A stretch of 64,000 nt of DNA from Callorhinchus milii (lineage: Eukaryota): positions 17,176,001 through 17,240,000 of the forward strand of contig NW_024704742.1 of NCBI RefSeq assembly GCF_018977255.1, written 5' to 3'. How positions within the stretch are numbered: the stretch's first letter is position 1; each line of letters starts with the position of its first letter. The notes under the pieces are model-generated. The model made no database searches. It had not been told where the DNA came from and saw only the letters and a list, made by a program, of their open reading frames with translations. Shown here in pieces: positions 17,098-56,554 of this stretch. The translations under genes were made by a program, and so were the position numbers.

Positions 17098-17556
17098 CTT
17101 TTTCTCGGCTCCTCTTCTAGATTTCACTTTTTCCCCTTGTCGTCTTGATTACCATTTTTCTCACTGTTATCCCCTGGATTTCCCTTTTTTCAACTCTTCA
17201 CTGGATTTCTCTTATTTTCCACTTCTCTACTCGATTTTACTTTTTTCCACTCTTCTCCTCTAGATATTCCTTTTCCATCCTCTTCTACTCTGGATTTCAC
17301 TTATTTTCCACTCTTCTCCTCTGGACTTCCTTTTTTTCCCCACTCTTCTCCTTTGGATGTCCCCTTTTTCCATGTTATCCTCTGGATTTCCACTTTTTCC
17401 CTGTTTTCTTCTAAATTTCTTCTTTATTCCCCTCTGAATTTCTTCTTTTCCCCTCTTCTTCTTTGGAGTCCCCTTTTTCCTCTCTTCTTTGGATTTCCAT
17501 TTTTATCCCTGCTCTCCTCTGAATTTCCCTATTTTTCCTGTTATCTTTTTGCCTCC
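17098..17556 (-). repeat. ~30-bp satellite, pyrimidine-rich (inverted) arm
   Basis: Recurrent CTCTGGATTTCC with T/C-rich linkers; reverse complement of the array to the right. Confidence 0.9.
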
Positions 17557-20080
17557 TAAAGGGAAAAAAAGGGGGAATCCAGATGAGAAAGAAGAAGAAA
17601 TGGGAAATCCAGAGGAGAAATGGGGATAAAACAGAAATCCAGTGGAAAAAGAAATGTGATATAGAGAAAAAAGTAAAGGAAATGGGAAATCCAGCGGAGA
17701 GAGAAGAAGAAATTGGAAATCCAGAGGAGAGAGGAGAAGAAATGGGAAATCCAGAGGAAAGAGAAAAAGAAATGGGAAATCCAGAGGAGAAAGCAGAAAA
17801 AAACGGGAAATCCAAAGAAGAAAGAAGAAGAAAATGGAAACCTAAGAGAGAAATAAGAAGAAAAGGGGAAATCCAGAGGAGAAACCAGAAGAAAGGGGAA
17901 ATCCAGAGAAGAGAGAAGAATACAAAATCCAGAGGAGAAAAGGGGATAACATGGAAATCCAGTGGGAAAAGAAATAGGAAAATAATAATAATAATATAAT
18001 AATATAATAACAATATAATAATAATCCTTGCACTTGATATAGTGCTTTTCATGTCTTCTAGACCTCTCAAAGCGCTTCACACAATACGCTGCAAAGTAAA
18101 TTGACTGAATATTTGTGGGCAAAAGGGAAATCCAGAGGAAAAGGCAGAACAAATGAGAAATCCAGAGGAGGAAGAAGAAGAAATGGGAATTCCAGAGGAT
18201 AAAGTAAAAGAAAAAGGGAAATCCAGTGAAAAATGTAGAAGAAATGGGAAATCCAAATGAAAGAGAAGAAGAAATAGGAAATCCAGAGGAAAAAGAAGAA
18301 ATGTGAAATCCAGTGGAGAGAGAAGAAGAAATGGGAAATCCAGTAGAGAAAAAAGAAGAAATGGGAAACCCAGAGGAGAAAAAATAAATAGGAAATCCAA
18401 AGAAAGAAAGAAGACAAAAAAAATGAAAATCTGGTGGAGAAAGAGGAAAAAGTGAAACCCTGAGGAGAAAGCAGACAAAAAAAGGGAAATCCAGAAGAGA
18501 AAGAAGAACGAAAGTGAAATCCGGAGGAGAAGAAAGGACAAGAGAGGACAAAAGAGGATAAAAGGGAAATCCAGAAGAGAAGAAAGGAAAAAGGGGAAAT
18601 CCAGAGAAGAAAGAAAAAGATAAGGGAAATCCAGGGTAAAAAGAAGAAGAAATGGGAAATCAAGTGGGAAAATAAGAAGAAATGGGAAATCCAGAAGAGA
18701 AAGAAAACAAAAAGGGAAATCCAGAGGAGGAAAAAGGAGAAAAAAGATAATCCAGATGAGAAAGAAGAACAAGAAAGGAAATTCAGAGGAGAAGAGAGGA
18801 AAACAAGGAAATCCAGAGAAGAAAGAAGACAAAAAGAGAAATCCAGATGAGAAAGAAGAAGAAAGGGGAAATTCAGAGGAGAAAGAAGAAGACAATGGAA
18901 AATCCAGACGAAAAAGAAGAAAAAATGGGAAATCCAGAAAACGAAAAAAATGAAATCCAGAGAAGAAATAATAAGAAAAAGCGAAATCCAGAGGAGAAAG
19001 AAGACAAGGGAAATCCAGATGAGAAAGAAGACAAAATAGGGAAATCCAGCAGAGAAACAAGAAAACAAGGGAAATCCAGAAGAGAAAGAAGAATAGGGAA
19101 ATCTAGAGGGGAAAGAAGAAGAAATAGGGAAATTCAGAGAAGATAGAAGAAAAAGGGAAATCCAGAGGACAAAGAAAAAGAAATGGGAAATACAGAGGAG
19201 AAAGAAGAAGAAATGGGAAATCCAGTCGAGAAAGAATAACGGATGGGAAATCCAGTGCAAGAAGAAGAAGATATGGGAAACCCAGTAGAGAACAAAGACA
19301 AAAAAATTAAATCCAGAGGAGAAAGAAGAGATGAAGGGAAATCCAGAGGAGAAAGAAGAAGAAATGGGAAACTAACAGGAGAAAGGAAATGATAAAGGAC
19401 AATCCAGAGGTGAAAGAAGAACAAAAAGGGAAATCCTGAGAAGAGAAGACAAGAGAGGACAAAAGGGAAATCCAGAGGAGAAAGAAGAAGAAATGGGAAA
19501 TCCAGGGTAAAAAGAAGAAGAAATGGGAAATCAAGTGGGAAAATAAGAAGAAATGGGAAATCCAGAAGAGAAAGAAAACAAAAAGGGAAATCCAGAGGAG
19601 GAAAAAGGAGAAAAAAGATAATCCAGATGAGAAAGAAGAACAAGAAAGGAAATTCAGAGGAGAAGAGAGGAAAACAAGGAAATCCAGAGAAGAAAGAAGA
19701 CAAAAAGAGAAATCCAGATGAGAAAGAAGAAGAAAGGGAAATTCAGAGGAGAAAGAAGAAGAAAAAGAGAAACCCAGAGGAGAAATAAGAGAATGGAAAT
19801 CCAGAAGAGAAAGAAGAATAGGAAAACCCAGAGGAGAAAGAACACGAAAAAGGGCAATCCAGAGCAAAGAGGAGAAAAAAGCAAATCCAGAGGAGAAAGA
19901 TACAGAATAAGGCAATCCAGAGGAAATGAGGGGAAAACGGGGAAATCCAGGGGAGAAAGAAGAAAAAAGGGAAATCCAGAGGAGAAAGAAAAAGAATAGG
20001 GAAATCCAGAGAAGAAAGATGAAAAAGGGAAATCTAGAGGAAATTAGGGAAAAAGTGAAATCCAGAGAAGAAAGAAGAGG
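17557..20080 (+). repeat. ~30-bp satellite, purine-rich arm (consensus about GGGAAATCCAGAGGAGAAAGAAGAAGAAAT)
   Basis: GAAATCCAG core recurs about every 30 bp, roughly 80 units by length estimate. Confidence 0.95.
17982..18122 (-). mobile_element. SINE 3' fragment inserted in the satellite
   Basis: (AAT)n followed by CCTTGCACTTGATATAGTGC..AAAGCGCTTCAC..TTTGTGGGC, interrupting the array. Confidence 0.85.
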
Positions 20081-27730: not shown

Positions 27731-28193
27731 AGTAAATGAGGACAGCTGCGGGTTGAATCTGACACAAGTACTTGCCCTCGGAGGGTTCAATGCTTCCCCA
27801 TAATAGCACTGCTTAGATTAGGAGTTCAAGCAGTTCAGAACCACTATAAGCAATTATTATGAATCCAACCACAACTTTGTTTCATAGGCAAAGGACACAC
27901 CTTATTGAATTACCTGTCAAGGATTCTCAATGATACCTTATTTCTCCTGGATTTGATGCTGTCTCTGTGCATTTTATTGTACAGTACCCGCTCTGAATTA
28001 ATTCCTTCCCTCTGGATTTTGCTGCGAGTTGCTGCCAACTATGTTGTCATTCCATCTGCAGTGTTTTGTTCCAAAGTTCCCCATTTTACTCAGAAAACGA
28101 GCATAAACTTCCCCAGAAAAGCTGCCGCCTTCGTAGGCTCGAGCACAGCTCTGGGGCTCGGATATTGCCGTCAGGCCTGAATTAAAGGGAAAA

Positions 28194-28253
28194 ATGATCA
28201 CACTATTCTTCTTCATCTGGTTGTCGAGCTCCATTTGGTTACAGACACTGGCG
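28194..28253 (+). CDS. Novel type I membrane protein, coding exon 1 (signal peptide MITLFFFIWLSSSIWLQTLA)
   Basis: AAAATG start with in-frame upstream TAG (28134-28136); 20 mostly hydrophobic codons; strong donor GCG|GTAAGT in phase 0, matching the phase-0 acceptor at 37096. Confidence 0.7.
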
Positions 28254-29380
28254 GTAAGTTATTTAATGATTTCTTTTCATTAGTTCAAATATTTTAACCA
28301 GTTACTTGCACACACACACACACTGTTGTATTTTCAGTGGCTCAGTGTGTTGAAAAAGTTTCCTTTTGCCTCTGAGTTCCAGGTTCAGAGACAGTACACA
28401 CACTGATGGGGTTGAAGTGTTCGCTCTCTCTGTTTGTTCTTGAATCATAATTGCATTGAGTCAGGGAGCAAGTTATGTGGGGCAATGTTGATTACACCCC
28501 ATTTTTATTTAGGGAAGCAGTTTACACAATTTCCTGCACTCTTATTGTTCGGAAACCATGGATTTACTCAGTATATTCCGGTCTTGATGTGAATCATGTC
28601 CCTGTACAATTTATTGCGAAACCTCAACACTGTAATGACGTCCAGACTGATGTAATTAATATAGAGGAGGGGTAGATTTCATCTGTGGAGGATAGTGACC
28701 AAGGTTTAATAGTGGCGAGGTGGCGATGGAGTTATAACTGTGAAATATTACTTACGCTGAGCTTTCTGTATTTGGGAACTAGTTTTTCATCCTGGGAAAG
28801 AAGTGGACTTGATTTGTTAAATGACCTTCTCTTTGTCTCCCAATGGATCAACTTCAAGGTTTTTTACCCTCACCGACAAATCCATTTGCCCGCCAGCATC
28901 TCCGAGTGACTCTGATTGTCTCTGATCTTCTCCCACCCTACTCCTCTGCTCTCTCTGACTTCTGGAACTCGCACCCTCAGCCCTTGTGTCTCATCCCCTT
29001 TCCACCTGTCTTCAAGTCCAACCTTATAATCTACCTCCTCTGTGGATTATAACACAACTGTGGTCACCTCCGCCTTCCCTCTTTTCCTCATCCCCCTCCC
29101 CCCCACCCACTCAAAGTTCTTCCCCACCACTGTGAAGTCTTTGAGCTATTATTCTATGTGAAGGATGCTATATAAATGCAAATTGTTACTGTTTATATAC
29201 TTAATGTGTCACACACTGATGGTAAAGTCCCAGGAGGCACAGTCATTAAGGTCTGGACACAGTGGAGGCACAAAACCCAGCAGCAAATGGGATTCCTTGG
29301 GAGTGAAAACTTGCTTAAATGTGTAAATCTTTAATGGAACTTGTTGAACTAAATCAAGCATATATTCTAAACAATACATA

Positions 29381-29960
29381 TCATAGAATTATACAGCACA
29401 GAAAGAGGCCATTCGGTCCATCGTGTCTGTACCGGCTCTTTGAACAGAGCTATCAAATTCAATCCCACTCCCCTGTTCTTTCTCCATAGCCCTGCAAACT
29501 TGTCAGCCCCAAATAATTATCTACATCTCTTTTAAAAGTTGTTATCGAATCAGCTTCCACCACCCTTTCAGGCAATGCATTCCAGATCCAAACAACTCGC
29601 TGTGAAAAAATGTCTCCTCATCTCCTTGCTGTTTCTTTCAACAACTATTTTAAATCGGTGTCCTTGGGTTACTGACCCACCCGCCAGTGGAAATAGTTTC
29701 TCCTTATTCACCCTATCAAATTCCTTCATAATTTTGAAAATTTCTATTAAGTCTCCTCTTAACCTTCTCTGCTCCAAGGAGAATAATCTTAGCTTCTCTA
29801 GCCTCTCCTGATAACTAAAGTCCCTCAGTCCTGGTACCATCCTGGTAAATCTCCTTTGCACCCTCTCCAGTGCCTTGACATTCTTCCTAAAGTGTGGTGC
29901 CCAGACCTGAACACAGTACTTTAGCTGAGGCCTAACCAGTGTTTTATAAAGGTTCATTAT
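29381..29960 (-). mobile_element. CR1 LINE 3' fragment
   Basis: LYKTLVRPQLKYCVQVWAP..LERVQRRFTRM..LFSLEQRRLRGDLIEIFKI is the typical CR1 ORF2 C-terminus. Confidence 0.92.
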
Positions 29961-31738
29961 AACTTTTTTTTAATGCATCATACATATTTTAATAATTCAG
30001 TTTTTACATAGCATTAGCAAGTTAAAAATCCCTCATGTATGATAATGAAATGAGTTGCAAAACAGTTGCTTCATACTTCATTTACAAACTCAATTTTGCT
30101 TAAATTGCTGCTACATAAATAAAAACACATTGCCGTAAAGTACAATTTCAGCAAGCACGATTACTAAAGACACCTTTGACAACCATAAAAATTAAAACAG
30201 TCATAAATAATCTAAAAGCCACGTATAATATAGAAAAGTATGACAAGAGACTTATTAATCTTACATTTGCGTCTCTGTGTCAAGCTGTATGGATTCATTC
30301 TATGCAGCATCTGTAAACATGTTTTCTCCCAACTTTCAAAACAAGGCAGATACATGAATGAGTTGTAGTCTCCACAGAGAACATACAATGAGACACTTAA
30401 TATAGGGTTCGCATTACTGCAAACTAATGATTTTAAAGAACATCTGCATTTCTCACATTTGGTATCAATGCACATGGTCCGAGTTACAGAGGATCGGCAA
30501 CAAGTTGTTCGCTTCACATCTGGCAAACACTAACATCACAAAGCAAAGAAAAACAAAAAAATTATTGAATGTAACATTGAGGGTAAATGTTTGGCTCTTT
30601 CCGATGATTTACAAAGGGTGTTCAGCATGGAAACAGGTCAATCAGCCAAACTAGTCTGTGCCGATGTTTACACTCCACATGAGTCTCCACCCACTCCTTA
30701 CCCCATCCCATACCCTTCTAACATCTTCTCCCTCATGTGTATTTCTAGCTTCCTGTTAAAAGCATCTAAACTATCCGGGTCAACCTCTATTTCGGATAGC
30801 AACTTTACCCTCACCACCCTCTCTGTGAAGAAGATCCTCCTAATTTCTCTTTTAGATGAACGGATAAGACATTAAGCCATCTTGGCTGACACTCCAATGC
30901 AGTGCTGGCAGAGTATTGCAATGTCAGAGGTGCAATCCTTCATATGAGATTTTAAATTGAGGTCCCACTGTCTGTTCAACAACAACAACAACTTGCATTT
31001 ATATAGCGCCCTTCACACCAGGTGACGTTCAGGTGAACGTTAAAGATCCTAAGGTAAAGGGAAGGGAGTTTCTCCCAGTGTTGTGGCAAAGAATCCCCCA
31101 GATAACAAAATGGTCATTCACTTCATGGTTGTTTGTGGGACATTGCTGTGTGCAAAATCGCTTCTGGATTCACCCACAAAATACATAGCAGGCAAAATAC
31201 TACACTTTACAGTAAATTCTGGGAAGCGCTTTGAGACAGCCTCTTGATGTGAAAGCCTCCTGAGACAGCCTCTTGTGTTCGCCCATAAATATACGGTCAA
31301 TTCACTTTACAGTCTATTCTGTGAAGCGCTTTGAGATGTCAAGAAGACATGAAAAGTGCTATATCAAATGCAAGGATTATTATTATAAGGTGCTATAGCA
31401 AATGCAAGGATTATTATTTATATGAGTGATAGAAGATGAACAGGTCACTTCTGAGCTGAATATTGCAAAGCACTGAAAAAACACATCTCATCTCCTTCAT
31501 GCTGACAGCTGGTGCCAAAATTTGAACAGCGTTACATTCCTTAATATTTCAAAGATTTCAAAGTGGCACTTTTATTATGTTGCAGAGTCTAATTGCAGAG
31601 TCTCTTCCATCGTGCCTTTATGTTATTATGTTATCTCTTATTTCCCTGTTCAGTGCCCACCCTTTGTAGACCATTTTGAGACATTCTTTCACTTGAAAGC
31701 TGCCATATAAATGTAAGCTGCTGTTATTCACTGCTCGT

Positions 31739-32106
31739 GGATTCCTGTAGCTTAGTGGTTAGATTACTTGCTTTGCAAGCGAGAGGATCTAGGTTTGATT
31801 TCCACCAGGGCAAAGCGTTGGGCAAGTTTCCTTACTCAACACGCCTCTGTTCACCTGGTTGTTAGTCGATTGGTGGATCGCTTTTCTGGGGGTAATAATC
31901 CCTTCCAAAATAAAAAAATAATAATAATTTGGTCACTCAGACCACAACTGTTTGTGGGAGACTGCCATGCGCAATTGGCTGCTACATTTTACCCACAAAA
32001 TATACAGTCAATTCACTTTGCAGTATATTCTGTGAAGCGCTTTGAGATGTATCGAAGGTTTGATCAGGCTGTTATATCAAATGCAAGGATTATTATTATT
32101 ATTATT
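31739..32106 (+). mobile_element. Full-length tRNA/Deu SINE
   Basis: Head, core and (TTA)n tail present. Confidence 0.85.
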
Positions 32107-35100
32107 TGGAAGAGATCACAATAGAGGTTCAGATGAAAAAGGCCTCTTGACCCCTTTGCTTATTGGGAAGACAGTAGGATCAGTATTCTTCTATTCTTCC
32201 TACAGCATCAAGCTGTTTCTTAAATGAGTCCAGTAATCTGGTCTCTACACCCTTCCTATTACCCCTTTCTGGCTCTTTACTATCCCCCCATCCAAAGTAA
32301 TACTTCCTGATGCCTGTTCCTGAAATTGCCCATCAAAATTCAGAATTTAGTCCCTCTTGTCCTGCCACTTTGGCATATCTGAAAGTATTTTTCTGAAGTC
32401 ACTTTCTGAAACCTATATGGCAACAACAACAACTTGCATTTATAATAGTGCACTGCATATAGGATGACATCTTGGAGCGCTGTGCAGCAACAGTGTTGGA
32501 CACCAAGCAAGGAAGTGGGAGCTCGCCTTATGTAGTACGATATAACATTGATTTCATTTCTAATCAATTATACTTTAAGCATTTCGAAGACATTTAAATT
32601 TTCAAAGGTGCTATAAAAATGTGAGTCATACTGTATTGTATTATGAAATCTTACATACCTCTAAACAATTCACTGTGAGATATTTATCTTCAAAGATGAA
32701 GCCCAAACTTATTGGCTGGTTGTTCTTTTTGTTATGCTTTGTTCTTCAACAAAAATAGTTTTCTGATGCATCATTTAATTATTTACTCACCTACAAAATT
32801 CATAGTCATATTATAAATAAATCTAGTGGAGAGCTTTGAGTTGTCCTCTGATGTGAAAAGTGCAATATTAAATGCAAAAGATTATTATTACCATTTAACT
32901 TCTTGTCCTGATACGTTGGTAAAATTGAAACTAAGATTCGGGGTTAATTTTTTCATATTTAGCAGTTTTTATATCTCTTTGATAGCCACTCTGATATTAT
33001 TATAAATGGGTGCTTTTAAATTTTTCCTTGCCTGCATGATAGGGAGTAGCTTTCACAGGGGCAGCCTGAGGTGCATTGGTGCAGAGAGGTGTACAAACAT
33101 TGTTGCGTTGCTATGCTTTACATTTTGGTTAGCTGTTAGTAACAAAATTGAAAACGTCTGTTGCGAATTTGAACAGAACTATTCCCCAATGTAACAGTCT
33201 GGGCCTAAACCTTTTGGCAGATTCATAGGGTAGTAGGCCAAGATCAGACTCATGGCAAAAATGAGCAACTGTTATAATAATAATGATCCTTACATTCGCT
33301 ATAGCTCTTTTCACATCAAGAGAACATCTCAAAGCGCTTCACAGAATATACTGTGTGTTTTGTGGGCAAACATAGGAGCCAATTTGCAGACAGCAATGTC
33401 CCAGAGCCAGCCATGAAATGAATAACCAATTTTATTTGAAGGATTGTTGGCCAGAACACCAGGAGAAACGCCCTTCTCTATTTTTGAGTTTAACTGTTAG
33501 AAAAAAAGGTTGTACTCTGTACTAAAGAGGTTTTTGCAGAAATACAGATAAAAAGGGCTTGACGTCCTTTTGATCTCTTGTTTCCATAATATGTCGAAGT
33601 GTCATTCATCACATCTCGATGGAAAAGCGTGGGCAGGGTAGTGGTGGTGGTGGTGGTGGTGGGGGAGGATGCGGGTAAGGGTAAGGAGGGGAAACGTATC
33701 TTTTAACAATGGTTGTGAAGGTGATGACTGCTGTGGTGTTGTGGCAAGTCTGTTGTGTGAACTTTAACCCATGAAAGATGCCTTCCTGTATCTGGCTATT
33801 GCCAGCTTCCTAGATACTTGACATGTGGGCAGTAGATAATAGACAAGATGGAATTCATAGGACATTTGACTATGAATCAGGGGAGGGCTGTAGAATATTC
33901 TACCCGATAGCTTTGTTCTGATTTTTCTGTGTTTTACTTATCTAAAACTGTATCTTCAGAGCTTTCACACTTTTATTACAAATCTGACTCTTTGTTCAGT
34001 TAAGTTCTGTTCGTTTTCCCAACATAAAGCAAATGTATTTGTTTCTGCTCCTTTTTTAACCTTGTGTTTTAGTTTCATGACTGTCAGCTCTCAAGTACCT
34101 CACCCATTAAGCCAGTTGCAGTTTATTAGGTCTTAACAGATCCTTTAATCCCTGTCCTCTCATCATCTCTCTCCTAGCCAAGTATCTGCCTATCCCTCTT
34201 TTAAATATCCCTATTTATTATACCTCTACGGCTTTCTGGGGCAGAGTTTTTGACATATACATAACCTTCTGTGTGAAGAAACACTTCCTGACTTCAGTTC
34301 TAACTCTCTTACCTGTTTTAATATTGACAATGTGTTCCCCTTGCAATGGATCCCTCTCCCAGAGTAATCAAACAGATTCTTCCTGTTTGAGTCTACGCAG
34401 TGGTTGGAAGCAGGTTATTCGAACATGGAGGTAAAGTCAATAAAATCACAGCCAATGTCCCCTTTTACACATGTTCTGGCAAGGGCCAATGGCTGGCAAT
34501 CAGGAGTAAGAACCCTGGTTTATCTTTCACTTCTAAGATCAGAGGCACTGAAGCAAATTATAGCATTCCTACATCCCAATCCCAACTGAGAATAAGTAAC
34601 TCAGTGAAATGGCTACTTATTAAATCTATTAATAGTCATAAGTGACAAAAAAAATGTTTAAATGTTTTGTGTTACAGGAAAAGTGCATTACCCGAGAAAA
34701 TTATTTAACATTATTTGCCAGCCCCAAATTCCAGGTAGCTTCAGAGCTTCAGTGCTCCCACTATTCTGAGCCACACAAGCCTTCAGTCATACATTAATTG
34801 TCAGCTTGCTTCAATTTGTAACAAGCTTGCCTCTGGGTCAAAATGTTTAAGCCCAACATTGGGAACTGAGACTCATAATCCAGGCCGACACGGCAGAGCA
34901 CCATCATTGCATTGCTAGAGATATTAAACTAAGGTCCTATCTGCATATTAATCAGGTCAATGTTATGGCACTATTCAAAAAGAGGAGGGAGTTTTCCTGA
35001 TGTCCTGGCCAACAATCCTCCAGATAAATTGGTCATTCATCTCAATGCTGTTTGCGAGACTTTGCCATTTGCAAAATGGTTGTTGCATTTGCCTACAAAT

Positions 35101-35631
35101 ACAGTGAGATTAATGGCTTGGAAAGGATTTTGTTGTTACGGATGCTATAAAAATACCAGTTCTTTCTTTTCTTTCTGCATAACCTCAAAATCTCAGGAGA
35201 GATCAGCCAATTAGGTGGCTTGTTAGCCCAGCCTCTCCTTCCAGATGTTCCAGTGTCACTTTGAAAGGCTCAGAAGTTAACACTTGGAAAACTTTTGAAC
35301 TTGCTGCTCTTCTGAATCTAACACAGTTACATTTTAGCGAGGAGACACCATGTACACAATGAATCTTTGACCTTCCTAGTGATGGCAGGGCAGCAGGGAA
35401 TCTCAACCTGGGTCTCAATAACTTGAATATGGTAACATGGCAACATAAAAATAATGCAGAAAAATGTGTATAAAAATGTGTATACCCATTTCAATCATAA
35501 AGGATGTTGGGCTTCTTGCCAGTGATTCATGAATGAACTCACCAGAGACCCACTTCTTTCAGAGACGTTAGTTTGTGCTAATGTGGGTTCCTACACTCTG
35601 ATTAAAACTTTATGAAGGATTATTTTACAAA

Positions 35632-36089
35632 GGCCCCATCCCCCAGAGGATCGAATTTAAGATCCTCATCCTCACCTACAAGGCCATTCACGGCCTTGCT
35701 CCCTCCGACCTCTCCGACCTACTATTCCCCTACTTACCTGCCTGTACCCTCCGTTCCTCTGGCTCCGGTCTGCTCAATATCCCCCGCCCTAACCACCCTA
35801 CCATCGGTGGTCGGGCTTTCAGCCTCTCAGCCCCGAGGCTCTGGAACTCCATCCTACAGTGCCTTCGCCGCCTCCTCCCTTTCCTCCTTCAAGGCCGGTC
35901 TCAAGACCTTTCTCTTTGACCGTGCCTTCAACTTCCCTCTCGACTCTCTACCCACTCCTCGCTCCCTTCCTTCCCTCCCCTCACCCTGACCATTTCCCCC
36001 TTGCTCGGGTCCCGACCCAACTGTCCAGTGCCCTGGGACGTCTTCCTGACGTGAAAGGCGCTCTATAAATGAAATCTTGTTGTTGTTGT
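35632..36089 (+). mobile_element. Young 5'-truncated L2 LINE
   Basis: Highly similar to 20155-20688; (TTG)n tail. Confidence 0.9.
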
Positions 36090-37095
36090 ATGAACTACAG
36101 GTGTACCTGGCTCATGACCCCATTTTCTGAGAGGTTCATTTTGGTTTATGCACTTTCGGTCATCTTCCCCCTCCCCACCCCTCGGCTCCCACCCGTAGTT
36201 CAGGTGCCCATCCACACTATAAAGCATTTTGAGACACCTTTCCGATAAGCACAGATCATAGGTCCAACCTTGGATCTATCAGGTCAATATGGTTGAGTTT
36301 CACTCCAGACAGCGACTTAACCAGCTGTATCTTTGGGGAACACTAGTTTTGTCTTACTCCATGAATGTTCTGAATAGATGCATCAGTTCCTCAAATTTAG
36401 CTGCTCCACTTTCTAGCTTTCATCTTTAGAAAGCCAAAGGAAGGCACATTTACAAATATTATACCAAAGAACATATTCTGATACTTAGAAAGTTGTTTAC
36501 ATGCACACTATTTTAAATAGAAAGGCCAATAATAGTGTCAAAAAGTTTAATTCACAGGGGTAGGAAGCTAACTGGTCTTACTACTTTCTGGGATTAGATG
36601 AACAGGGTGGATCCTTGTGGAGAGAGAGTTCACAACAGATAATTGTAATTACGAAAACACATCAAAGTATAAAAAATATAAAAAGTTTAAAAAATCGTCT
36701 GGGGAGTGTACAAGAGGAGAAGGTATGTCACTCTCTGGTATTTGTTTCCACACTCTGTCTTTCTATATTGTCAGCTTTCAGAAATCACAATTAGCCACTT
36801 TGTGAATATCATAAGTTAGATCACATGTTGTTATTTAAACCAAAGTAAACGTCAGTTTGTAATGATTGAATTCACCAACACTCCTCACTGTTCAGTGTGA
36901 CTGTGACAACTCAGAGTCATTGCCATGTTTAATGCAGACTTGCAGTTAATTCAGCCTTCACAAAAGCCTTGTGTTTCCAGGCAGCCAAGTGTTTGTAGAC
37001 TTTCATATTATATATTGCATTATATTTTTGTTTCAAGCTGCAGTTGACATGCTTCCTCTGAATTAAGACCAGGTTTGTCTATTTCCTTCTGCTAG

Positions 37096-37257
37096 GTACC
37101 AGTGAGCGCGCAACCAAGCACTGGCGATGAAGGAGAAGCTGATTCACATACTCTTCAGACTTATTTAGTGGCTGTTCTTGTCCTTCTGATAGTAGTGTTG
37201 CTCGTCTGTGTTGCAGCAATTTGCGGAGTTGCTCTCATCTACTTCAAACTCAACCAG
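37096..37257 (+). CDS. Novel type I membrane protein, coding exon 2 (short ectodomain and TM helix)
   Basis: Acceptor TTTCCTTCTGCTAG|GTA, donor CAG|GTATTC; 162 nt, phase 0-0; encodes VPVSAQPSTGDEGEADSHTLQTYLVAVLVLLIVVLLVCVAAICGVALIYFKLNQ. Confidence 0.85.
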
Positions 37258-37559
37258 GTATTCTTCATTGTTAGTTATTACATGTGTCCAAACAAAACAG
37301 GCAAGGAGACTAAAATCTTTAGAAAATCAAAAAAGAAAGCTTGGGTTATTCCTCTGCAGGAGAAGGACATTCAGGGTACAAGCAGGTGAAAGGGCTCTAT
37401 CTTGCACATCTGCACAACATTATTTCCACTATTGTGAGAAATACTACAGGAACCCTACTATGAGCCAGTGACTTCAGAAGAAAAATATTTAAGAAAGCTA
37501 TCGAGGTCATTTCGTTATAAATTCGACCATTGATGTTCTTTTACAAGTCAACTCTCTCA

Positions 37560-37847
37560 GGCAGGGTGAAACCTTAGGCAAATTTCCTTACTCCACACAT
37601 CTCTGTTTACCCAGCAGGAACCTGGTTATTAGTCGATTGGCGGATCGCTTTCCGTTGGTAATAATCCCGTCAACATTTTTTTTAAGAAATAAAGATAATA
37701 ATTTAGTGATTCAATTCGTGACTGTTTGTGGGACACTGCTGTGCACAATTGGCTATCGCGTTTTGCCCAGAAAAGATACAGTCAATTCAGTTGAGAAGTC
37801 TCAACGTGATAAGGAGCTATATCAAAAGCAAGGATTACTATTATTAT
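37560..37847 (+). mobile_element. 5'-truncated SINE in intron 2 of the novel gene
   Basis: SINE body, core and tail. Confidence 0.8.
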
Positions 37848-37935
37848 TGAGAAGAGCCTTTAGCTGCACTTTGACAGATTGAGCCACGTTTTTGAGTGTT
37901 GTGCAGAAAACTCTATTTAATTTGGTTTGTTTCAG

Positions 37936-38994
37936 ATCAGAAAAATATTGTTAGAAAAGGATGACGGGACCTACGCACAGATAGACAGCAATCTGGGCCA
38001 TTTCGTACAGGTGCAAAAGGATCAAAAGTGCTCATCTGGTACCAATGTTGATGTGAAAGGAAACAGCAGCCGTGGAGCAGAGGAGATTAACAATGTATGT
38101 AATGAAAGGTCAAGCAGGCGTTCCTCTCTTAAAATTCCCACTGGGACAGTTCGAGCCACCTCCTTCGAGTTTTACAATGAAACCAGTGTTGATGTGAAGT
38201 TCAGGAAGGCTTCTCCTGCTGATGTACTCAAAAATAGTCAGGCTATGGAGAAAACCCCCAAATATCCCTCACCTCCGTCTTACGGAAATGCTACCAGGAG
38301 TAGTTCACGGAGCACAGTGCATCGAGTGGAAAAGAAAGATGGGAGTCATGACATTGGAGCACAGAGACTGAGAGTCAATTCACAGGCAAATGGCCTTCAG
38401 GACCCATCAGAAGTTAGAGCTTACAATCTTGCTGAGAACATTAGTTCTGTCATTATCCGCCCTAACCAGAAACGTGTACAACATTGCAAAACTGAACCGA
38501 GAGACCATGGAGCAACAGCAGAAGACTTTGGTAACCCAAAGCAAAGTTCTGTGGATCATTATGCTTCCAACTCAAGCATTTATGCGATTTATGACGTCCC
38601 CCGACCCTGCTCATGTTCCTCCCTATCTGTAGGGTGCCAGGGTTTGCCACTGCCTCCGTCAACCACGGCCTCCCATCACGAACCTCTGAAACGCTGCTTG
38701 AGTGAAATGAGTTCTTCTGCTTTCAAGCTGTCACATGATGTGCATCAGGATAGCAAGTGTCCAGTGTCCAGGCCAGTGACCTTTCCGAGCCATGAGAACT
38801 ATGATACTGAGTTTAAGAATCTGAAGGAATCCTCTTCCAAGGACTCCGGTGTTGCTTCATACGTGGATTCCCAGTTGCTAGATTTAATTCCTGAGGGAAA
38901 TGAACCTCATATTGACTCAGCAAATGAGCTAGAATCTGTGGAGAGACAACAATCTGACAAGGATCTCGGTGGAGATAAAAGTCTATTCATTTAA
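37936..38994 (+). CDS. Novel type I membrane protein, terminal exon (352 aa of cytoplasmic tail)
   Basis: Acceptor TTTGGTTTGTTTCAG|ATC in phase 0; 1059-nt non-repetitive open frame ending in TAA; basic juxtamembrane IRK; Ser-rich with 10 Tyr. Confidence 0.88.
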   Translation: MRKILLEKDDGTYAQIDSNLGHFVQVQKDQKCSSGTNVDVKGNSSRGAEEINNVCNERSSRRSSLKIPTGTVRATSFEFYNETSVDVKFRKASPADVLKNSQAMEKTPKYPSPPSYGNATRSSSRSTVHRVEKKDGSHDIGAQRLRVNSQANGLQDPSEVRAYNLAENISSVIIRPNQKRVQHCKTEPRDHGATAEDFGNPKQSSVDHYASNSSIYAIYDVPRPCSCSSLSVGCQGLPLPPSTTASHHEPLKRCLSEMSSSAFKLSHDVHQDSKCPVSRPVTFPSHENYDTEFKNLKESSSKDSGVASYVDSQLLDLIPEGNEPHIDSANELESVERQQSDKDLGGDKSLFI

Positions 38995-39543
38995 TGCAAA
39001 TTGTAATGCTATCTTTAAAACGGAAAGGGAAGGTGCTAAGATGGCATACTGGAGGCACTTTTGGTTGTATTGTACCATCAGTTAATGATTACTGTCTTGC
39101 TTTCCACATATGAGATGAGAAATTGTGGTTTATAACAGTCTTTAAATGTCAACTGTTTTGGACTGCAACCCCCTCACCCCTACCCCACACCCTCCCGCAA
39201 CTTGACTGTGGCACCATTTTACCCCAAGCCTCCGACCTTTGCCATTGTTGCTGCCCAAGGAACATATTTGTGCCACTGAGTGAGAAAACAGCCTGATTGC
39301 CTGTATACTTGAACACCAAGATAGAGGAATGATTCTCCCAGATAAATGATTAAATCCATGGGCCCAACAATTCATCAATAGAAAAAAGAACAATCTCAAA
39401 TTGACGACCAAAATGCAAGCATCTTTTGTGCAGTAAAACAGCTGGGACTGAGCAAAATTTTAGCCCCAAAAATATACAGAGATGTTTCACAGAGAAAAAA
39501 ATGATAACCTTGGGATGGTAAAAAAATCGAACTCAGCAGTGTC

Positions 39544-44591: not shown

Positions 44592-44690
44592 TTAGAAGTT
44601 CAGCGTTTGCGACATCATCTTCCACCACTGCAACATTTCTTCCTTCTCCTCTTCTTTTCTTTCGGCAAAAGACTCCAGAGCAAAGTTGAC
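44592..44690 (-). CDS. CPE: Carboxypeptidase E, last coding exon (exon 9)
   Basis: [32 protein letters not shown] is the CPE-specific C-terminus; acceptor AAG|GTC; 99 nt including TAA. Confidence 0.96.
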
Positions 44691-44911
44691 CTTGATGTGG
44701 ACGAGGGGTGAGGGAGGGGGTGAGGGAGAAGAAAGAAAAACATGAATCAATGATGTTTGAGCATAGGTTTCTTACTGTAACGGCAGATAATGTGTTACCC
44801 ACATTCTTTAAGACTGGGCGGAGGAATAAACCCCCTTCTATCATCTGACTTTTACACCATGGCTGTACACGAGCATAACTTTGTCAATCTCGTTCTTTGT
44901 GAAAGAATGTG

Positions 44912-45797
44912 CCAACAACAACAACAACAAGATTCCATTTATTGAGCGCCTTTCACGTCGGGAGGACGTCCCAAGGCGCTGTACAGTTGGGTCAGGACCC
45001 GAGCAGGGGGGAAATGGTCAGGGTGAGGGGAGGGAAGGGAGGGAGCAAGGAGGAGGTAGAGAGTCGAGAGGGGAGCTGAAGGCATGGTCAAAGAGAAAGG
45101 TCTTGAGACCGGCCTTGAAGGAGGAAAGGGAGGAGGCGGCGAAGGAACTGGGGGATAGAGTTCCAGAGCCTCGGGGCTGAGAGGCTGAAGGCCCGGCCAC
45201 CGATGGTAGGGCGGTTGGGGCGGGGGATGTGGAGCAGACCGGAGCCAGAGGAATGGAGGGTACGGGCAGGTAGGTAGAGGGATAGTAGGTCGGAGAGGTA
45301 GGAGGGAACAGGGCCGCGAATGGCCTTGTAGGTGAGGATGAGGATCTTGAATTCGATCCTCTGGGGGATGGGGAGCCAGGGGAGGCGAGCGAGGGTGGGA
45401 GTGATGTGGTCCCGAAGCCTGGTGTGGGACAGTACACGAGCTGCAGAGTTCTGAATGACCTGCAGCTTGTGGAGGGAGGTGCCGAGAAGGCCGACGAGGA
45501 GAGAGTTCCCATAGTCCAGCCTTGAGATGATAAAGGCGTGGACCAGAGTTTCAGCAGCGTGAGGGGTGAGGTAGTGCCGTAGTCTGACGACATTCCGGAG
45601 GTGATGGAAGGCGGTGCCAGTTGTTAGACCAAAAAATGTTTTTAAAAAATTTGAAACTACAATTCCATATACAGCAGTTGTGCGGTGCCAGTTGTGGCGC
45701 GGATATGAGGGAGAAAGGACAGCTCAGGGTCAAACAGAACCCCGAGGTTCCTGACTGGCTTTGAGTGGTTTAGAGTGCAGCCTTGGATGCTGAGTGT
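44912..45797 (-). mobile_element. Young L2 LINE in CPE intron 8 (copy 2 of the pair)
   Basis: Nearly identical to 40722-41438, extends further 5', and carries a 53-bp foreign insert. Confidence 0.9.
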
Positions 45798-46233
45798 TCA
45801 TGACTGAGGCCCTTCAATTATTTGTGTCACCCAGTTGCTTTTTTCAATCCACTGCCCACCGCAAACAGAAACTTTCATCCCCATCCCCTGGGTTCGATGA
45901 TTCCACAGATAAAAAAAAGCAGGGGTTGGGGCAAAACTCCTAAAGTCACACTGTGCCATTTTCCCAACAACTTTAATTTTGAAGCGATAAGAATTACAAT
46001 AACCGGATTTCAAAGTTAAGACTGAATTCAACAATATTAACTATTCAAATATTCTATTCGACTTTTATCAATGTTAACAGAGTAAATCTAGAACCAGATA
46101 GAATTTCTACCCCACTGTTTCGTAACATGTGGGAACCTTTGGTTCTGCGCCTACAAATGGTATATACCATTATAAACGGTCAATCAGTGAAAGCGAGTTA
46201 GACACCATCATTGTTTTTTTTATATATAAGTTA

Positions 46234-46386
<153 letters not shown>

Positions 46387-48007
46387 TTAAGTACAGTTTA
46401 ATGGACAATAGGCATGCAAGGTTCACTATAGTGTTGGGGGGCATTTATATTTCCCCCATGGATGCACGTGTATCAGAATTAGACATAAGTATTATCAGTG
46501 AGTAGAGGAGGCTTTCCAAGTGGACAATCAGTTACACAATCACGGGAAATACTAGAAGTGGGAATTTTAGCTGCAAAGACACAACTAATGACCAAAATGC
46601 TAAATGACTATTTTCCTTCCAAGTTTCACTTATGAACTAAGTCCATTTGTCGGGTAAGACCAATGCCCCGCCTACTTGTTCAAGTGGACATTAGAGATCC
46701 AGTAACACTATTTGCAGACGAGAGGTGGGTTTCCTGGCTAACAATCCTCTAGATAAAATTGGTCATGCAGTTTGTGAGTCATTGATGTGTGTAAACTGGC
46801 TGCTGCGTTGGCTTACACTTCACTTTACAGAAATTCCCTGTGAAGTGCTATAGGTACTATATCAAAATGCAAGGATTATTATTAAATCATTTCATGATAA
46901 TTCAGAATAAAAGTAACAGGATATTTGATTTTCTCCGTTTCTAACTCTATACTTCTTAAAGAGATATTCTCTCCAATTTTCTCTCCTGAAGGCACTGAGT
47001 CAAGCTGGTTGTCCTTCTGCACTTTGCTGACTTTCATCATATATGAGTCTGGACAATGGGCATCAATGGACTATACCTAGGGGAGGCATCATTACAGAGT
47101 CTAATCCTGTTCTCAGTGACATCCACTTGCCAGCAGGGATCGCTGGATAATGGCTGCTTTTCCCCTTCCTTAGATCAAAGTGCTATGGCAAATTGTAGTA
47201 GGGCCACCTGCATCCCAACAAAGAGTCAGGGCAGGGCTTGAAGTTATGCCCTTCAGGGTCTTATATGCACTGCACCAACTGAATCACTGTTTAGCAACAT
47301 GGAACAGGAGTGGGCAATTCCACACAGTGACCCTGCACTCCTAAATCTATGACAATTCTTCAATTCCATTCCCTACTTTTTCCACACATCTCGTAACATC
47401 CTAATTTACCAATTATTGCTCTGATATTCCACTTAACCTCAGCCTGTGAGATAATTTTGTCTTAAAAGTTAACATTGTGCAGAACTATGCAAAATTCTTC
47501 ACTACAATCTTAATTTTCAAGTCGTTTTTCTACAATGCTTAAGAACAACTTTGGTGATAACCTCAACATTCCATTTAAAGCCAGATATGACAGCAAGTGC
47601 CAAACAGCGTCAGTCGTGAGAAATCTAACCGCTTTGCTTCCCTCAGAACCAGACACAAAACCAGATCCATTTGGTCCCGTGCAGCTGTTGTGAGTTTTCT
47701 TTTCGTTCTTTACAAAAATGACAAGAAAATACCTTGAAGCAACAGATTCAATTAGTGGAGAGCATTGAGTTACTCACTCTGATTAATATTTGAAACCTGA
47801 TTACTGAGTGCGCCCAGACCCTTTACCCCCAACCCCACAACATCTTTAACCTCGCAGCTTTCAGCAGGCAAGTAACTGAGAAATTCCAAGTGAGCCGCAA
47901 ATACCACACACAGATGTGAGGCTGACACCCCCGGGTGACATCATGTTGGCATGTTCACAAATGTGACTAAATAGTGTTGCAAATTACTGATTCCAGAGAA
48001 AATGTCC

Positions 48008-48295
48008 TGACCCTCAGTCTCTCACTCAAAACCAGCCTAACCTTTTGTCTCATATCCAAAACTAGCTTCACCATTAGTCTCTCACCCAAACTAGACTGAC
48101 TCTTAGTCTCTCACCCAAACCAGTCTGACTCTTAGTCTCTCACTCAAAACCAGTCTGACCTTTTGGCTCAAAAAACAAGCCTGACTCAGTCTCTCACAAC
48201 GAACCAACCTAACTCTCCATCTCTCACTCAGAACAGTCTGACTTTTATCTCTCACCCAAAGCAATCTGACCCTCTATATCTCATCTAAAACAACC
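48008..48295. repeat. ~30-bp minisatellite in CPE intron 7
   Basis: About 9 diverged units of CTGACTCTTAGTCTCTCACCCAAAACCAGT, followed by (CA)n. Confidence 0.85.
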
Positions 48296-49099
48296 GTGTA
48301 CACACACACACACTTCATTTTCCCTTCTCATGGAGCAATACACTAATCAGATTGCCAGCTGCAACAGAAAGACTGCTGTGTCAGAAGCAGTGTAAGAACA
48401 AGACATTAATAACATGGGGATATTTGCGTGTTTGTCAGAAATTGTTGTAGTTGAGAGCATTTAAGGAAGTTACTGACAAATGGTGATAGAGCCCTGGTGT
48501 AAGTGTTGAATGCAGGGATCATTATAAGGTACACTTCCCTGTTCTGCCATCTTTTAGTTGGATTTAATCATTTGGAAATTATTTTATGAAGATGTACATT
48601 TTATTGGGTGAAAACAGGTTTGAAAAATAGGGGCACAAAAAAAATGTGGTGAGTGATATGATAATTATCACTGGTGAAAATGATTATATTGCGAGGCATT
48701 CCACTCCTGGAGATGGACCAGCTGAGAACTGCTCTGAGGAACTACTGTGGGAAGCCCCCCCACACACATTACCTTTAAGTAGTTTCACCCAGAAAAGATT
48801 TGGTCCAGATATTGGGCCAGCGGACAGAGCTTTTTATCCTGTCGCTGTATGACACCCAGCATTTAAGTGCTTGTCCCAAAAACACTGGCTTAATAATAAT
48901 CCTTGCATTTCATATAGCGTCTTATCAATCATTGAGACTTCTCAAAGCGCTTCACAGAATATACTGTAAAGTGACTTGACTGTGTATTTTGTGGACAAAA
49001 CTCAAAATCAAGAAGTTGCATAGATTTGCATAGATTGTACAGTGATTCAGCTCAACCAGTCTGCGCCAGTGTTTATACTCCCACACGAGTCTCCACCTA

Positions 49100-49495
49100 T
49101 ACACCTCTCGCCTATACCCTCTATTTCCTTCTCTCTCATGTGTATGAGGGGGAGGGGAACAAATAGTCTGCCAAATTATTTTCGCCCACAAAATATACAA
49201 TCAATTCATAGTATATTATATCACACACCACATTTTGCAGTTCCAATTGATACATCTCCCCCCCACCCCTCATTTTGTTTCAGATGGTTTCACCCAAACC
49301 TAACATTAAAAATAATCCTTCCATTTGATATAGCACCTTATCATATCTTCTAAACATCTCAAAGCACTTTACAGAATATACAGTAAAGTGAATTGATTGT
49401 ATTTTTGTGGGCAAAAATAATTTGCAAGACTATTTGTTTCTCTCTGCCCCATTCACACGAGGGAGAAGAGAATAGAAGGGTATGGGAGAGAGCAA
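49100..49495. repeat. Local inverted duplication (~105-bp arms)
   Basis: 49100-49208 matches the reverse complement of ~49390-49495, including the non-SINE linker AACAAATAGTCT..CAAATTATTTT. Confidence 0.75.
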
Positions 49496-50899
49496 GGAGT
49501 GTAGCAAGTTTCACAGCAGCCTGGAAAGTGCATGTAGGTACATGTGATTGGTGACAGTGAATCTCAAATATGATAAAAGGCTCTGTCTGTAAGTGAGCGA
49601 ACTGTGACTAGACTAGAACTAACAGCTGCTTCTAAAATGAAGACCCTGTTCAAAGGGACAGCTTAAAAGACTGAACGAAAGATTCAAGGACTAAATTAAA
49701 TCAAACGTGGCTTATGACTGCCTGTTTGGTTGCGAAGGCTGGTTACCTGAGCCTGTGATTTTATGTGACTTTAAGCTTTAATGTTTTCACTGTAAAACTG
49801 CATTTCACTCTTTGATAGTGTAGCCATAGGTCCACATGACAGATTTTCAAATTCTGCACTATTGATTATAAACCTTTTTGAATTATTCATATGCTTCTGA
49901 TCTTATAATAAAACTGTTTGGACTTCAGGTTCACATATCATCTAATGCCATTGAGCAGAGCCCAGAGACTAGATATAAATGTCAGACAACTGTATGTACT
50001 TGAGTCTGATAAAACTGCTTTTTGCTAGTACTTCATGCGAAAATATGGAATGCACATGTACTACAAACCTCCAATGGCAACAAATTCCACTGTTAAGGCC
50101 TCCAAACCATTCTCCTTGGCATGATTGCTTCTTTTAACTAGCCTATTAAGCCACTTAAATCATGTTTAAAGTCTTTGGCAACTGCTGATCTCCCAATGCT
50201 TTGTTTTGTGCCTCTTCATCTTCTGTATGCTGGACAGAAAGCCAATTACAGATCCTCTTCAGTACATAAAAAAGTCCTACACTTCATCCTTTCCCCCCCA
50301 TTTACTTAAGCCTGGAAAAATCTGAGCCCACTAGCTTTTGGAAAGCATGAAGGGAGGAGGATATAAATGGGTTGGACTATCGCTTGAGAGGAAGGATTTA
50401 CAAGCCCCAAAGCTCCTGTTTTTTTCAAACATTCTGTACGATTCCAGTGTTCCTCGTGTCTGTCCAACCTTTGCCCATCTGCACAGCTGCAAGAGGTGGG
50501 GCAGCTAGAGCTGAAGTTTGCTGTCGTGTACACTTTTTATATTAATTGTTTCCATCCTTGTGCATTACCCCCATCCTCCTGCTTCCTCCAGGGTGCTCAA
50601 TTCATGACAGCATCAGGTACTATAACTTTAGACAGCCTTTTAAAACACTCCTGGAATTCATTTTGTTCAATGGGTTAAATTTGAAAGATCCAGTCACCGA
50701 GAAAGACTTGCTATTTATGTTATTCTTCAGCCTCAGACACCTCTGTACAGAGTTCAAACTCACAGCTGCAGAGGAAAATCAGGTCAATCTCAGAGTTGGG
50801 AGACTTTCTGAAAGTTTGGAAATTACTCTGAAAATCCAATCAACCTCAGAACTCCTTAGAGCTTTGATTTTCTATTCACTCTGAATGGGATTTTGCAGG

Positions 50900-53280: not shown

Positions 53281-53384
53281 TTACACAAGCTCTCTACAGA
53301 GAGCATGCATGAAATAAAGTTAATCTGTCTGTTCAGTTGGATGTTGAAGTTCCCACCGCACTATTCGATAACTAGAAGGGAGAT

Positions 53385-53738
53385 TATGTAGCTTATGGTT
53401 AGAGCACTCGTAAGCGACAGGACCTGGATTCGATTTCCCAGGCCGGGCGAAATGTCAGGCAAGTTTCATTACTCCACAAACCTCCATTTACCTAGCAATA
53501 AGTGGTTAGTCGATTGGTGGATTGCTTTTCCGGGGGTAATAATTCCTTCAAAATAAATAAAATCATTTGGTCACTCAATCCACAGCTGTTTGTGGGACAC
53601 TGCTGTGCAATTCGCAGCCACGTTTCGCCCATAAAATACAGTCAATTCACTTTATAATATATTTTGTATAGCGCTTTGAGGCGTCTCGAAGATGTGATAA
53701 GGCGCTATATCAAATGCAAAGATTATTATTATTATTAT
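53385..53738 (+). mobile_element. Full-length tRNA/Deu SINE
   Basis: Head, core and tail present. Confidence 0.8.
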
Positions 53739-55184: not shown

Positions 55185-55284
55185 CAGATGTGATGTCATG
55201 ATCTATGCCTTCCACAGAAATGGAGGCATTAGAGAGTGGGTTGCCCTGGTGATCCCGGACAAAGCCTTTGACCCCGCGGTGCAC
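55185..55284 (-). CDS. CPE: Carboxypeptidase E exon 7
   Basis: [39 protein letters not shown]| acceptor, |GTACGT donor; 100 nt. Confidence 0.96.

Positions 55285-56523: not shown

Positions 56524-56554
<31 letters not shown>

Follow-up and report, generated by a model that had tools for sequence, protein, structure and literature searches.

A three-exon gene of the elephant shark and its unnamed family of single-pass membrane proteins with adaptor-like architecture in jawed vertebrates

Structure and expression of the gene

The window analysed here is a stretch of 64,000 nucleotides from the elephant shark Callorhinchus milii (assembly GCF_018977255.1, contig NW_024704742.1, positions 17,176,001 to 17,240,000), and it carries on its plus strand a three-exon gene for a predicted single-pass membrane protein, LOC103177341. 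The coding parts at 28194-28253, 37096-37257 and 37936-38994 join in frame to give 426 amino acids (20, 54 and 352 residues, respectively), with the first stop codon at 38992-38994. Both introns (8842 and 678 nt) have GT..AG ends and good polypyrimidine tracts; the donors read gcg|GTAAGT and cag|GTATTC, the acceptors end in ...CTGCTAG| and ...GTTTCAG|, and every junction is in phase 0. This model had been proposed in an earlier note made from the sequence alone, and translation, splice sites and public record agree on it: the joined protein is identical to XP_007889656.1, the 'uncharacterized protein LOC103177341' of Callorhinchus. The gene, which the note had called unrecognised, is therefore already annotated, as uncharacterised. 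LOC103177341 and five other identifiers of its family are unnamed in the open-access PMC and bioRxiv literature, and nothing on this gene was found there under 'transmembrane adaptor' and 'elephant shark'.

Contigs of four public runs were aligned to 28000-39400, and each of the two joints is bridged by one spliced contig of one run, both runs (X1 and X2, taken to be RNA) belonging to one study. A 268-nt contig of run X2 lies on 28117-28252 and then on 37095-37226, which places the first joint at 28253^37096 with one ambiguous letter (g). A 1913-nt contig of run X1 lies on 37095-37254 and then on 37933-39400, which places the second joint at 37257^37936 with three ambiguous letters (cag). Unspliced contigs of run X6 extend across the same borders (28254-29181, 36483-37474 and 37819-39400), and this run behaves as DNA; run X4, from a second study, contributed exon-3 contigs only, and gaps in the cover of X1, X2 and X4 were given no weight. 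Exon 3 maps to one locus only in the 991-Mb genome, which identifies the joined form as RNA rather than a retrocopy. An open frame of at least 357 codons is expected by chance only 3.9e-5 times in the six frames of the window. On these results, LOC103177341 is a protein-coding gene that the elephant shark expresses and carries in one copy.

Exon 1 spans 28010-28253, with a 5' untranslated region (UTR) of at least 184 nt followed by the coding part (28194-28253), which encodes the signal-peptide-like leader MITLFFFIWLSSSIWLQTLA. Its upper limit is the start of a second contig of run X1 (28010-28253), so the UTR length is a lower bound; this contig stops exactly at the exon 1 donor, and that of run X2 begins at 28117. 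An in-frame TAG stands at 28134-28136, 20 codons above the ATG and within the RNA-covered part of exon 1. An upstream exon adding a folded ectodomain, one of the findings that the earlier note had named as refuting its model, is thereby excluded for this transcript. The 5' UTR also holds, at 28041-28106, a 21-codon frame that starts from an upstream ATG and closes before the main one, a possible upstream open reading frame.

Intron 1 (28254-37095) is dense in interspersed repeats with very high repeat depth, and repeat-like open frames occur inside it at 29.5-30.0 kb and 35.6-36.1 kb. Exon 2 (37096-37257; 162 nt, phase 0-0) encodes residues 21-74, which complete the leader (VPVSA|Q) and supply the acidic ectodomain, the membrane helix and the start of a juxtamembrane helix. 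Intron 2 (37258-37935) is skipped by the X1 contig. The coding part of exon 3 (37936-38994) encodes residues 75-426, a disordered, serine-rich tail, and the stop codon. The 3' UTR occupies at least 38995-39400: the X1 contig, which has 1628 of its 1913 letters up to 39400, extends about 285 nt farther, and candidate poly(A) signals are present in the region. Within exon 3 run X1 differs from the window at three positions (38226, 38378 and 38397), of which two are synonymous (V171 and L228) and one gives N222S; these are probably alleles.

The predicted protein, its relatives and its neighbours

Four parts are predicted in the protein: a cleavable leader, an acidic ectodomain of about 18-23 residues with no fold and no cysteine, an uncharged membrane helix and a disordered tail. 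Hydropathy in 19-residue windows gives a single strong peak over residues 36-75 (maximum 3.64), and the leader never reaches 1.6, a profile more like that of a cleavable signal peptide than of a further membrane helix. The helix itself covers approximately residues 44-70 (37165-37245) and contains C58 and C63. In the 15 residues before it there are 0-2 lysines or arginines, versus 3-6 in the 15 after it, in all 11 proteins compared; by the positive-inside rule, in which the positively charged flank is cytoplasmic, the tail is placed in the cytoplasm. None of these 11 proteins has a charged residue (D/E/K/R) within the helix. The tail (residues 71-426; 356 amino acids) is 14.9% serine and has 10 tyrosines. 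Its N-x-S/T sites were disregarded, being cytoplasmic under the inferred topology, and no such site precedes the helix in the ectodomain.

The ectodomain comprises residues 21-43, or 26-43 if the leader is cut after A25. The note had placed cleavage at TLA|VP, after A20. Five residues beyond that point, a V/A-x-G/A triplet is found in all 14 proteins (of 16) that carry the stretch, and Q comes next in 12 of them (VSA|Q in the elephant shark, VTG|Q in most). Signal-peptide cleavage sites follow the -3/-1 rule, to which VSA|Q appears to conform at least as well as TLA|VP, and the conservation suggests cleavage after A25 rather than after A20.

An AlphaFold2 model from an 11-sequence alignment has helices at residues 2-19 and 37-106 (predicted local distance difference test, pLDDT, up to 91), which would correspond to the leader helix and to the transmembrane plus juxtamembrane helix, respectively. 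Residues 108-375 and 377-426 are modelled with pLDDT below 50 and no secondary structure, and the mean pLDDT is 45.6. Neither exon 2 nor exon 3 nor any of 11 family members scanned reached the cut-off of a Pfam family, and PDB sequence searches returned only chance-level rows (E 1.1 or worse). The best Pfam match, E_Pc_C (E 0.004-0.007), was under its cut-off and confined to one member, and was rejected. Taken together, the type I topology, the tiny acidic ectodomain, the helix with two cysteines and the serine-rich, domainless tail with 10 tyrosines, all described in the earlier note, have held up.

A search with exon 3 gave 14 proteins at E ≤ 0.01: the query itself and 13 proteins from sharks, rays, sawfish, electric ray and skate (41-53% identity), all labelled uncharacterised or hypothetical. 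When a profile of 12 chondrichthyan sequences was run against 1.84 billion representatives, two proteins matched at E ≤ 0.001, namely the family's own representative and an uncharacterised reedfish protein (E 2.4e-9); the latter, used as query, led to an uncharacterised protein of the spotted gar (E 4.8e-25). The reedfish and gar proteins are only 24-25% identical to the shark protein, and hhalign against the chondrichthyan profile gave them probabilities of 97.6% and 96.9%, respectively, over a match that runs from the leader end through the membrane helix to the first tyrosine motif. A profile including both, scored against 8000 candidates, returned 16 proteins at E ≤ 1, the same 14 and these two. 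Frame, length and motif order are kept in these 16 species, whose divergence times span more than 400 million years. Neither profile search yielded a named relative, or any relative from teleosts, lobe-finned fishes or tetrapods; sensitivity is limited for disordered proteins and the second search was word-based, so these searches do not establish absence from teleosts and tetrapods. A search of the elephant-shark genome with the gar protein missed the window gene itself, and being that insensitive it gives no evidence on paralogues. The gene thus belongs to an unnamed, old family of jawed vertebrates, found so far in 14 cartilaginous fishes, the reedfish and the gar. This is a wider range than the 'lineage-restricted' protein of the earlier note, which was right that no named orthologue can be assigned.

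Some records depart from this pattern at their N-termini. In a predicted isoform (X2) of the zebra shark the leader is joined directly to IRKML..., without the exon-2 part that includes the membrane helix; at 162 nt, exon 2 could be skipped with the frame kept, and no such joint is among the elephant-shark joints and contig pieces listed. Three orthologue records have 40-56 extra N-terminal residues (...CSHRFLSQSLL.VPRKQRRM...) ahead of the shared methionine, which look like 5' UTR read-through from an upstream ATG; the same upstream frame is closed in the elephant shark by the TAG 20 codons above the ATG. A feature search of an atlas with the shark and gar proteins gave scores below 0.9 throughout, and its rows were set aside as look-alikes in architecture only, at most leads: LIME1 (13% of cluster members), SCIMP, UL132 and the viral adaptors A36 (A36R) and UL135, and further TMEM119, TMEM210, C1orf185 and opalin (0.81-0.82). 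Its structure rows had TM values by query below 0.3.

The conserved positions of the chondrichthyan tail cluster in islands at residues 78-92, 288-300, 322-341, 344-360 and 370-399, of which the last is the most conserved (mean column identity 0.96). Of the longer stretches, the membrane helix is the best conserved (0.80): A60 and G64 are invariant in 12 of 12 chondrichthyans, G64 also in all 11 sequences of the 11-sequence alignment, where C58 is kept in 10, and the flanks VPVTGQ and LQxY are conserved. Three tail motifs, EKD..YxxΦ, YDxP and DSGxxS, are each present in all 16 proteins and always in the same order; shuffled tails carry each of these in 0.2-4% of trials. The first lies in EKDDGTYAQI (residues 81-90; 37954-37983), an acidic stretch followed by YxxΦ, in which Y87 is invariant (11/11); the pattern occurs in 10-14 of 5000 shuffled tails. 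The second opens YDVPRPCSCSSLSVGC (residues 293-308; 38590-38637), where YDxP is followed by a cysteine cluster, C299-x-C301...C308. A CxC stands 1-6 residues after YDxP in all 16 proteins, and Y293, C299, C301 and C308 are invariant (11/11). The third lies in DSGVASYVDSQLL (residues 377-389; 38842-38880), in which a DxxLL follows DSGxxS after two residues. DSGxxS falls in one alignment column block in all 16 proteins and turns up in 120-128 of 5000 tails after shuffling; 13 of the 16 also have DxxLL, the exceptions being reedfish, gar and one catshark record.

Other motifs are less widely kept. PPSY (residues 187-190; 38272-38283) is a PPxY that can also be read as YGN (YxN), and these patterns are found in 13 and 11 of the 16 proteins, respectively. 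Tyrosines Y184, Y190, Y290 and Y363 are kept in 8-9 of 11 sequences. A second YxxP (YAVP) is present in the sampled elasmobranchs; its tyrosine is kept in 11 of 12 chondrichthyans and is a cysteine in the elephant shark. YxxΦ is an AP-2 signal, PPxY a ligand of NEDD4-type WW domains and DxxLL a GGA signal; the Csk SH2 domain prefers Y-[TAS]-[KRQN]-[MIVR], which the YAQI-type site fits in 14 of 16 proteins. Matches to the pattern of an immunoreceptor tyrosine-based inhibitory motif (12/16) were rejected, as in the sequences examined they sit where the membrane helix ends (LIYFKL).

The rest of the window is vertebrate DNA of about 40% G+C, rich in interspersed repeats. On the minus strand, the frames 62296-62637, 59308-59472 and 57005-57271 match Peptidase_M14 over the cut-off and 57843-58124 does so below it, and 55111-55350 and 46234-46386 match CarboxypepD_reg below the cut-off. 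The Pfam scan of this strand from 39 kb covered 82 of 111 frames of at least 45 amino acids, the other 29 being those of repeat-like stretches at approximately 40.8-41.5, 44.8-45.8, 50.9-53.4 and 63.6-64.0 kb. The solved chains nearest to these frames are carboxypeptidases D and M. The frames belong to a carboxypeptidase gene of the N/E subfamily (44592-62637, minus strand) that has its coding stop near 44592 and continues past the window end, and which we take to be carboxypeptidase E (CPE). It converges with LOC103177341, the two coding ends being 5.6 kb apart. On the other side, the best genome-wide Astacin match lies on the minus strand of the same contig, 138 kb left of the window, and is read as a tolloid-like gene. 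LOC103177341 thus lies between carboxypeptidase E-like and tolloid-like genes; CPE and TLL1 are presumably neighbours in human as well.

A purine-rich satellite of 30-nt units (60-nt higher order) occupies 17112-20078. Its main array (18121-20078) contains some 66 copies, and a short block in inverted orientation lies at 17112-17538; no open frames in the window are longer than those it yields by compositional chance (434 and 367 amino acids). Interspersed repeats at 20.1-20.6, 24.2-27.6, 35.6-36.1, 40.8-41.5, 44.9-45.7, 50.9-53.4 and 63.6-64.0 kb carry mutually similar open frames that look like retrotransposon fragments. Those within 28000-39400, together with other repeats of that stretch, drew very high summed depth in all four runs and thousands of false joints.

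Candidate function and competing explanations

In the account of PMC4861716, transmembrane adaptor proteins (TRAPs) have a short ectodomain of few residues, hardly able to bind a ligand, and a single membrane helix that leads into a long tail, whose tyrosine motifs bind SH2 proteins once phosphorylated; most of them, LAX excepted, have a juxtamembrane palmitoylation motif. These proteins, which are expressed in leukocytes and act in immunoreceptor signalling, are a functional class and not a homology family. The TRAP-like architecture suggested in the earlier note was confirmed in part: LOC103177341 has the tiny ectodomain, the single helix and the long tail free of enzymatic or folded domains, and it lacks both the palmitoylation motif of the CxxC type and any match to the TRAP Pfam models.

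The reading that we favour, tentatively and with somewhat less than even confidence, is that the protein is a transmembrane-adaptor-like phosphotyrosine scaffold, with ubiquitin ligases and sorting in endosomes controlling its level. Beyond the anatomy, the whole mechanism is what we infer from it. The tail would be a string of short docking motifs, in which Y87 and Y293 may be phosphorylated by a Src-type kinase. As described in PMC12071665, YxxP/YDxP is the Crk/CrkL SH2 site of p130Cas and is phosphorylated by Src kinases, and pY293-D-V-P would likewise recruit an SH2 adaptor of the Crk/CrkL/Nck type. Phosphorylated Y87-A-Q-I, with acidic residues before it, might bind an SH2 domain of the Csk/Src type, and the unphosphorylated site might bind AP-2 mu as YxxΦ. 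DSGxxS is described as the recognition motif of beta-TrCP, read after phosphorylation of both serines (PMC3641602; PMC6770538). Together with PPxY, the invariant DSGxxS would bring in NEDD4-type and SCF-beta-TrCP ubiquitin ligases, and these ligases and the chondrichthyan DxxLL would send the protein to endosomes or lysosomes, ending the signal. The membrane helix has a conserved small-xxx-small face (A60xxxG64) and C58.

Several observations weigh against this reading. Short motifs taken singly are weak predictors, and three of the 16 proteins lack PPxY, as three lack DxxLL. Of the 10 tail tyrosines no more than two (Y87 and Y293) are invariant, which is fewer than in classical adaptors. Neither an immunoreceptor tyrosine-based activation motif (ITAM) nor NPxY was found in any of the 16 proteins, and the pattern of an immunoreceptor tyrosine-based switch motif only in reedfish and gar (2/16). 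A CxxC or CC palmitoylation motif is juxtamembrane in none of the 16; the pattern occurs in 3, never beside the helix, and C58 lies inside the membrane helix. None of 11 members matched the models of LAT (PF15234), LAX (PF15681), PAG (PF15347), SIT (PF15330), LIME1 (PF15332) or SCIMP (PF15050) at E ≤ 10. A scaffold leaves the invariant cysteine cluster and the blocks 322-341 and 344-360 unexplained. As for expression, the runs bear coded labels and no tissue names, none is on record as RNA, and that label for X1 and X2 is a guess.

The main rival, which we regard as unlikely, is that the protein is a membrane-embedded adaptor for ubiquitin ligases or trafficking, following the logic of Vpu or NDFIP: its helix would bind client proteins, its tail would bring beta-TrCP, NEDD4-type ligases and clathrin adaptors, and the partners would be down-regulated. 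It draws on the best conserved parts of the protein, since DSGxxS is its best conserved element and the helix, with invariant A60 and G64, its best conserved long stretch, and PPxY and the chondrichthyan DxxLL fit it as well. There is a precedent in Vpu, described in PMC6770538 as combining a helix alanine face with DSGxxS and ExxxLV. Such an adaptor leaves the invariant YDxP and Y87 unexplained, however; it has no known client, DxxLL and PPxY are lost in some members, and DSGxxS may be the protein's own degron.

Alternatively, the protein could serve some receptor or channel as an accessory or signalling subunit, much like a co-receptor chain, assembling with it through the helix and tiny ectodomain while the tail serves the partner; we consider this improbable. 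The helix is free of charged residues in 11 of 11 proteins, unlike those of the DAP12, FcR-gamma and CD3-zeta chains, no ITAM is present and no partner is known. Assembly through the membrane would nevertheless be consistent with the conserved helix, its small-xxx-small motif and its flanks VPVTGQ and LQxY, and with an ectodomain too small to bind a ligand alone, an argument made equally for TRAPs in PMC4861716.

A more speculative lead concerns CD4. The juxtamembrane 13-mer (KLSQIRKMLSEKD in sharks, KLNQIRKILLEKD in the elephant shark) resembles the mouse CD4 helix RMSQIKRLLSEKK (Table 1, PMC9333989), with 5-7 identities in 13 positions in 12 full-length chondrichthyan proteins and a score reached by 0-1 of 2000 shuffles; the choice of this 13-mer was post hoc. 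In reedfish and gar the resemblance is less marked, with 31-60 of 2000 shuffles reaching the score. CD4 binds Lck via a CxC zinc clasp (PMC9333989), and a CxC is invariant here (16/16). The protein could accordingly be imagined as a 'headless' adaptor of early jawed vertebrates that docks an Lck-type kinase, since lost or become unrecognisable in teleosts and tetrapods. The CD4-like helix and the CxC(...C) cluster beside YDxP would clasp a Src-family kinase through zinc, phosphorylation of the adjacent tyrosine by this kinase would follow, and DSGxxS and PPxY would time the removal of the complex. However, over 200 residues separate the CxC from the helix, which in CD4 it adjoins; the in-frame TAG in exon 1 leaves no room for an immunoglobulin (Ig) ectodomain; and the PDB sequence searches returned no CD4 chain at E ≤ 10. 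We therefore treat the idea as a long shot; if true, it would describe an ancient component kept in cartilaginous and early-branching ray-finned fishes.

There is a slim chance, slimmer still than that of the CD4-like docking adaptor, that the gene is a strongly diverged orthologue of a named bony-vertebrate gene such as LAX1 or SIT1, unlinked by sequence search. Disordered tails diverge fast, as the low identity of the reedfish and gar proteins illustrates, and since the LAT, LAX, SIT, LIME1 and SCIMP models are blank genome-wide, orthologues may hide. Against this, none of 11 members matches those models, both profile searches lacked a named relative, PAG has a clear locus of its own, and the gene sits between the CPE-like and tolloid-like genes, where none of the named adaptors is known to lie in human. 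Finally, that there is no functional protein (a transcribed frame without product, or an annotation artefact) is hardly credible: no protein-level evidence was seen and expression is known from contigs of few runs, but the transcript is spliced, its long frame is not expected by chance, the exon-3 differences are two synonymous and one N222S, and frame, length and motif order are kept across the 16 species.

The finding adds an unnamed old family to the single-pass adaptor-like membrane proteins, through a gene already annotated as uncharacterised. Its motif set (YxxΦ, YDxP by a cysteine cluster, DSGxxS) is compact and unusual and has been conserved through a very long history. Should teleosts and tetrapods really lack the family, both large bony-vertebrate radiations would have lost a signalling or trafficking component, which bears on the wiring of lymphocyte or other receptor signalling in sharks; if a hidden mammalian orthologue exists, the motif map should help to locate it. 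The gene is solid, its function is what we infer, and no concept is overturned.

Comparison with known systems

The build of PAG1/Cbp is nearly the same, and the YAQI-type site here fits the Csk SH2 preference. PAG is described as having a 16-amino-acid ectodomain, one helix and a 397-amino-acid tail with 10 tyrosines (PMC2213442), against approximately 18-23 residues, one helix and 356 residues with 10 tyrosines in the elephant-shark protein. The same source describes PAG as a type III protein without a leader and with a CSSC palmitoylation site right after the helix, whereas LOC103177341 has a leader and no CSSC-type site. None of 11 members of its family matches the PAG Pfam model, and PAG itself is elsewhere in the genome: that model finds a clear multi-exon locus at C2:110731933-110748423 (110.73 Mb) and a second, weaker one at C18:13091975-13114047. 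With the LAT, LAX, SIT, LIME1 and SCIMP models nothing significant was found in the elephant-shark genome, blanks which do not show absence.

SIT has a cleaved leader, as predicted here, and both SIT1 and LAX1, adaptors located outside rafts, share the short ectodomain, single helix and tyrosine-bearing tail. LAX also resembles the present protein in being listed without a palmitoylation motif, and is described as having multiple Grb2-binding motifs (PMC4861716); here, by contrast, YxN is not invariant (11/16). Unlike SIT1, the protein has no ectodomain cysteine for a SIT-like disulfide dimer, and neither the LAX nor the SIT model matches any member (0/11). The absence of a juxtamembrane CxxC or CC and the count of two invariant tyrosines in ten speak against a close likeness to LAT, PAG, NTAL or LIME.

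Chains of the DAP12, FcR-gamma and CD3-zeta type combine a tail ITAM with a membrane helix that contains a charged residue, neither of which is found here (0/16 and 0/11, respectively). A CD4-type co-receptor has four Ig domains, an intracellular helix and a CxC clasp (PMC9333989), and LOC103177341 is not of this type; no CD4 orthologue is reported in the elephant shark (PMC9333989). The invariant Y-D-[VA]-P (16/16) is of the Crk/CrkL SH2-binding type known from p130Cas (PMC12071665), which differs in being cytosolic and in having 15 YxxP repeats, compared with one invariant site here.

On the side of protein turnover, DSGxxS makes all 16 members predicted beta-TrCP substrates or recruiters by motif. 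HIV-1 Vpu is about five times shorter than the elephant-shark protein and has no sequence relationship to it. As described in PMC6770538, Vpu is a small type I protein in which the alanine face of the membrane helix binds target helices and DSGxxS, with an ExxxLV signal nearby, binds beta-TrCP and AP mu subunits. LOC103177341 shares the type I topology, the small-residue helix face and a DSGxxS closely before an acidic di-leucine-type signal, and differs in being a cellular gene with additional tyrosine, PPxY and cysteine motifs. DSGxxS, PPxY and the cysteine cluster are among the most strongly conserved motifs, and would suggest control by ubiquitin ligases and a role in trafficking no less than SH2 signalling.

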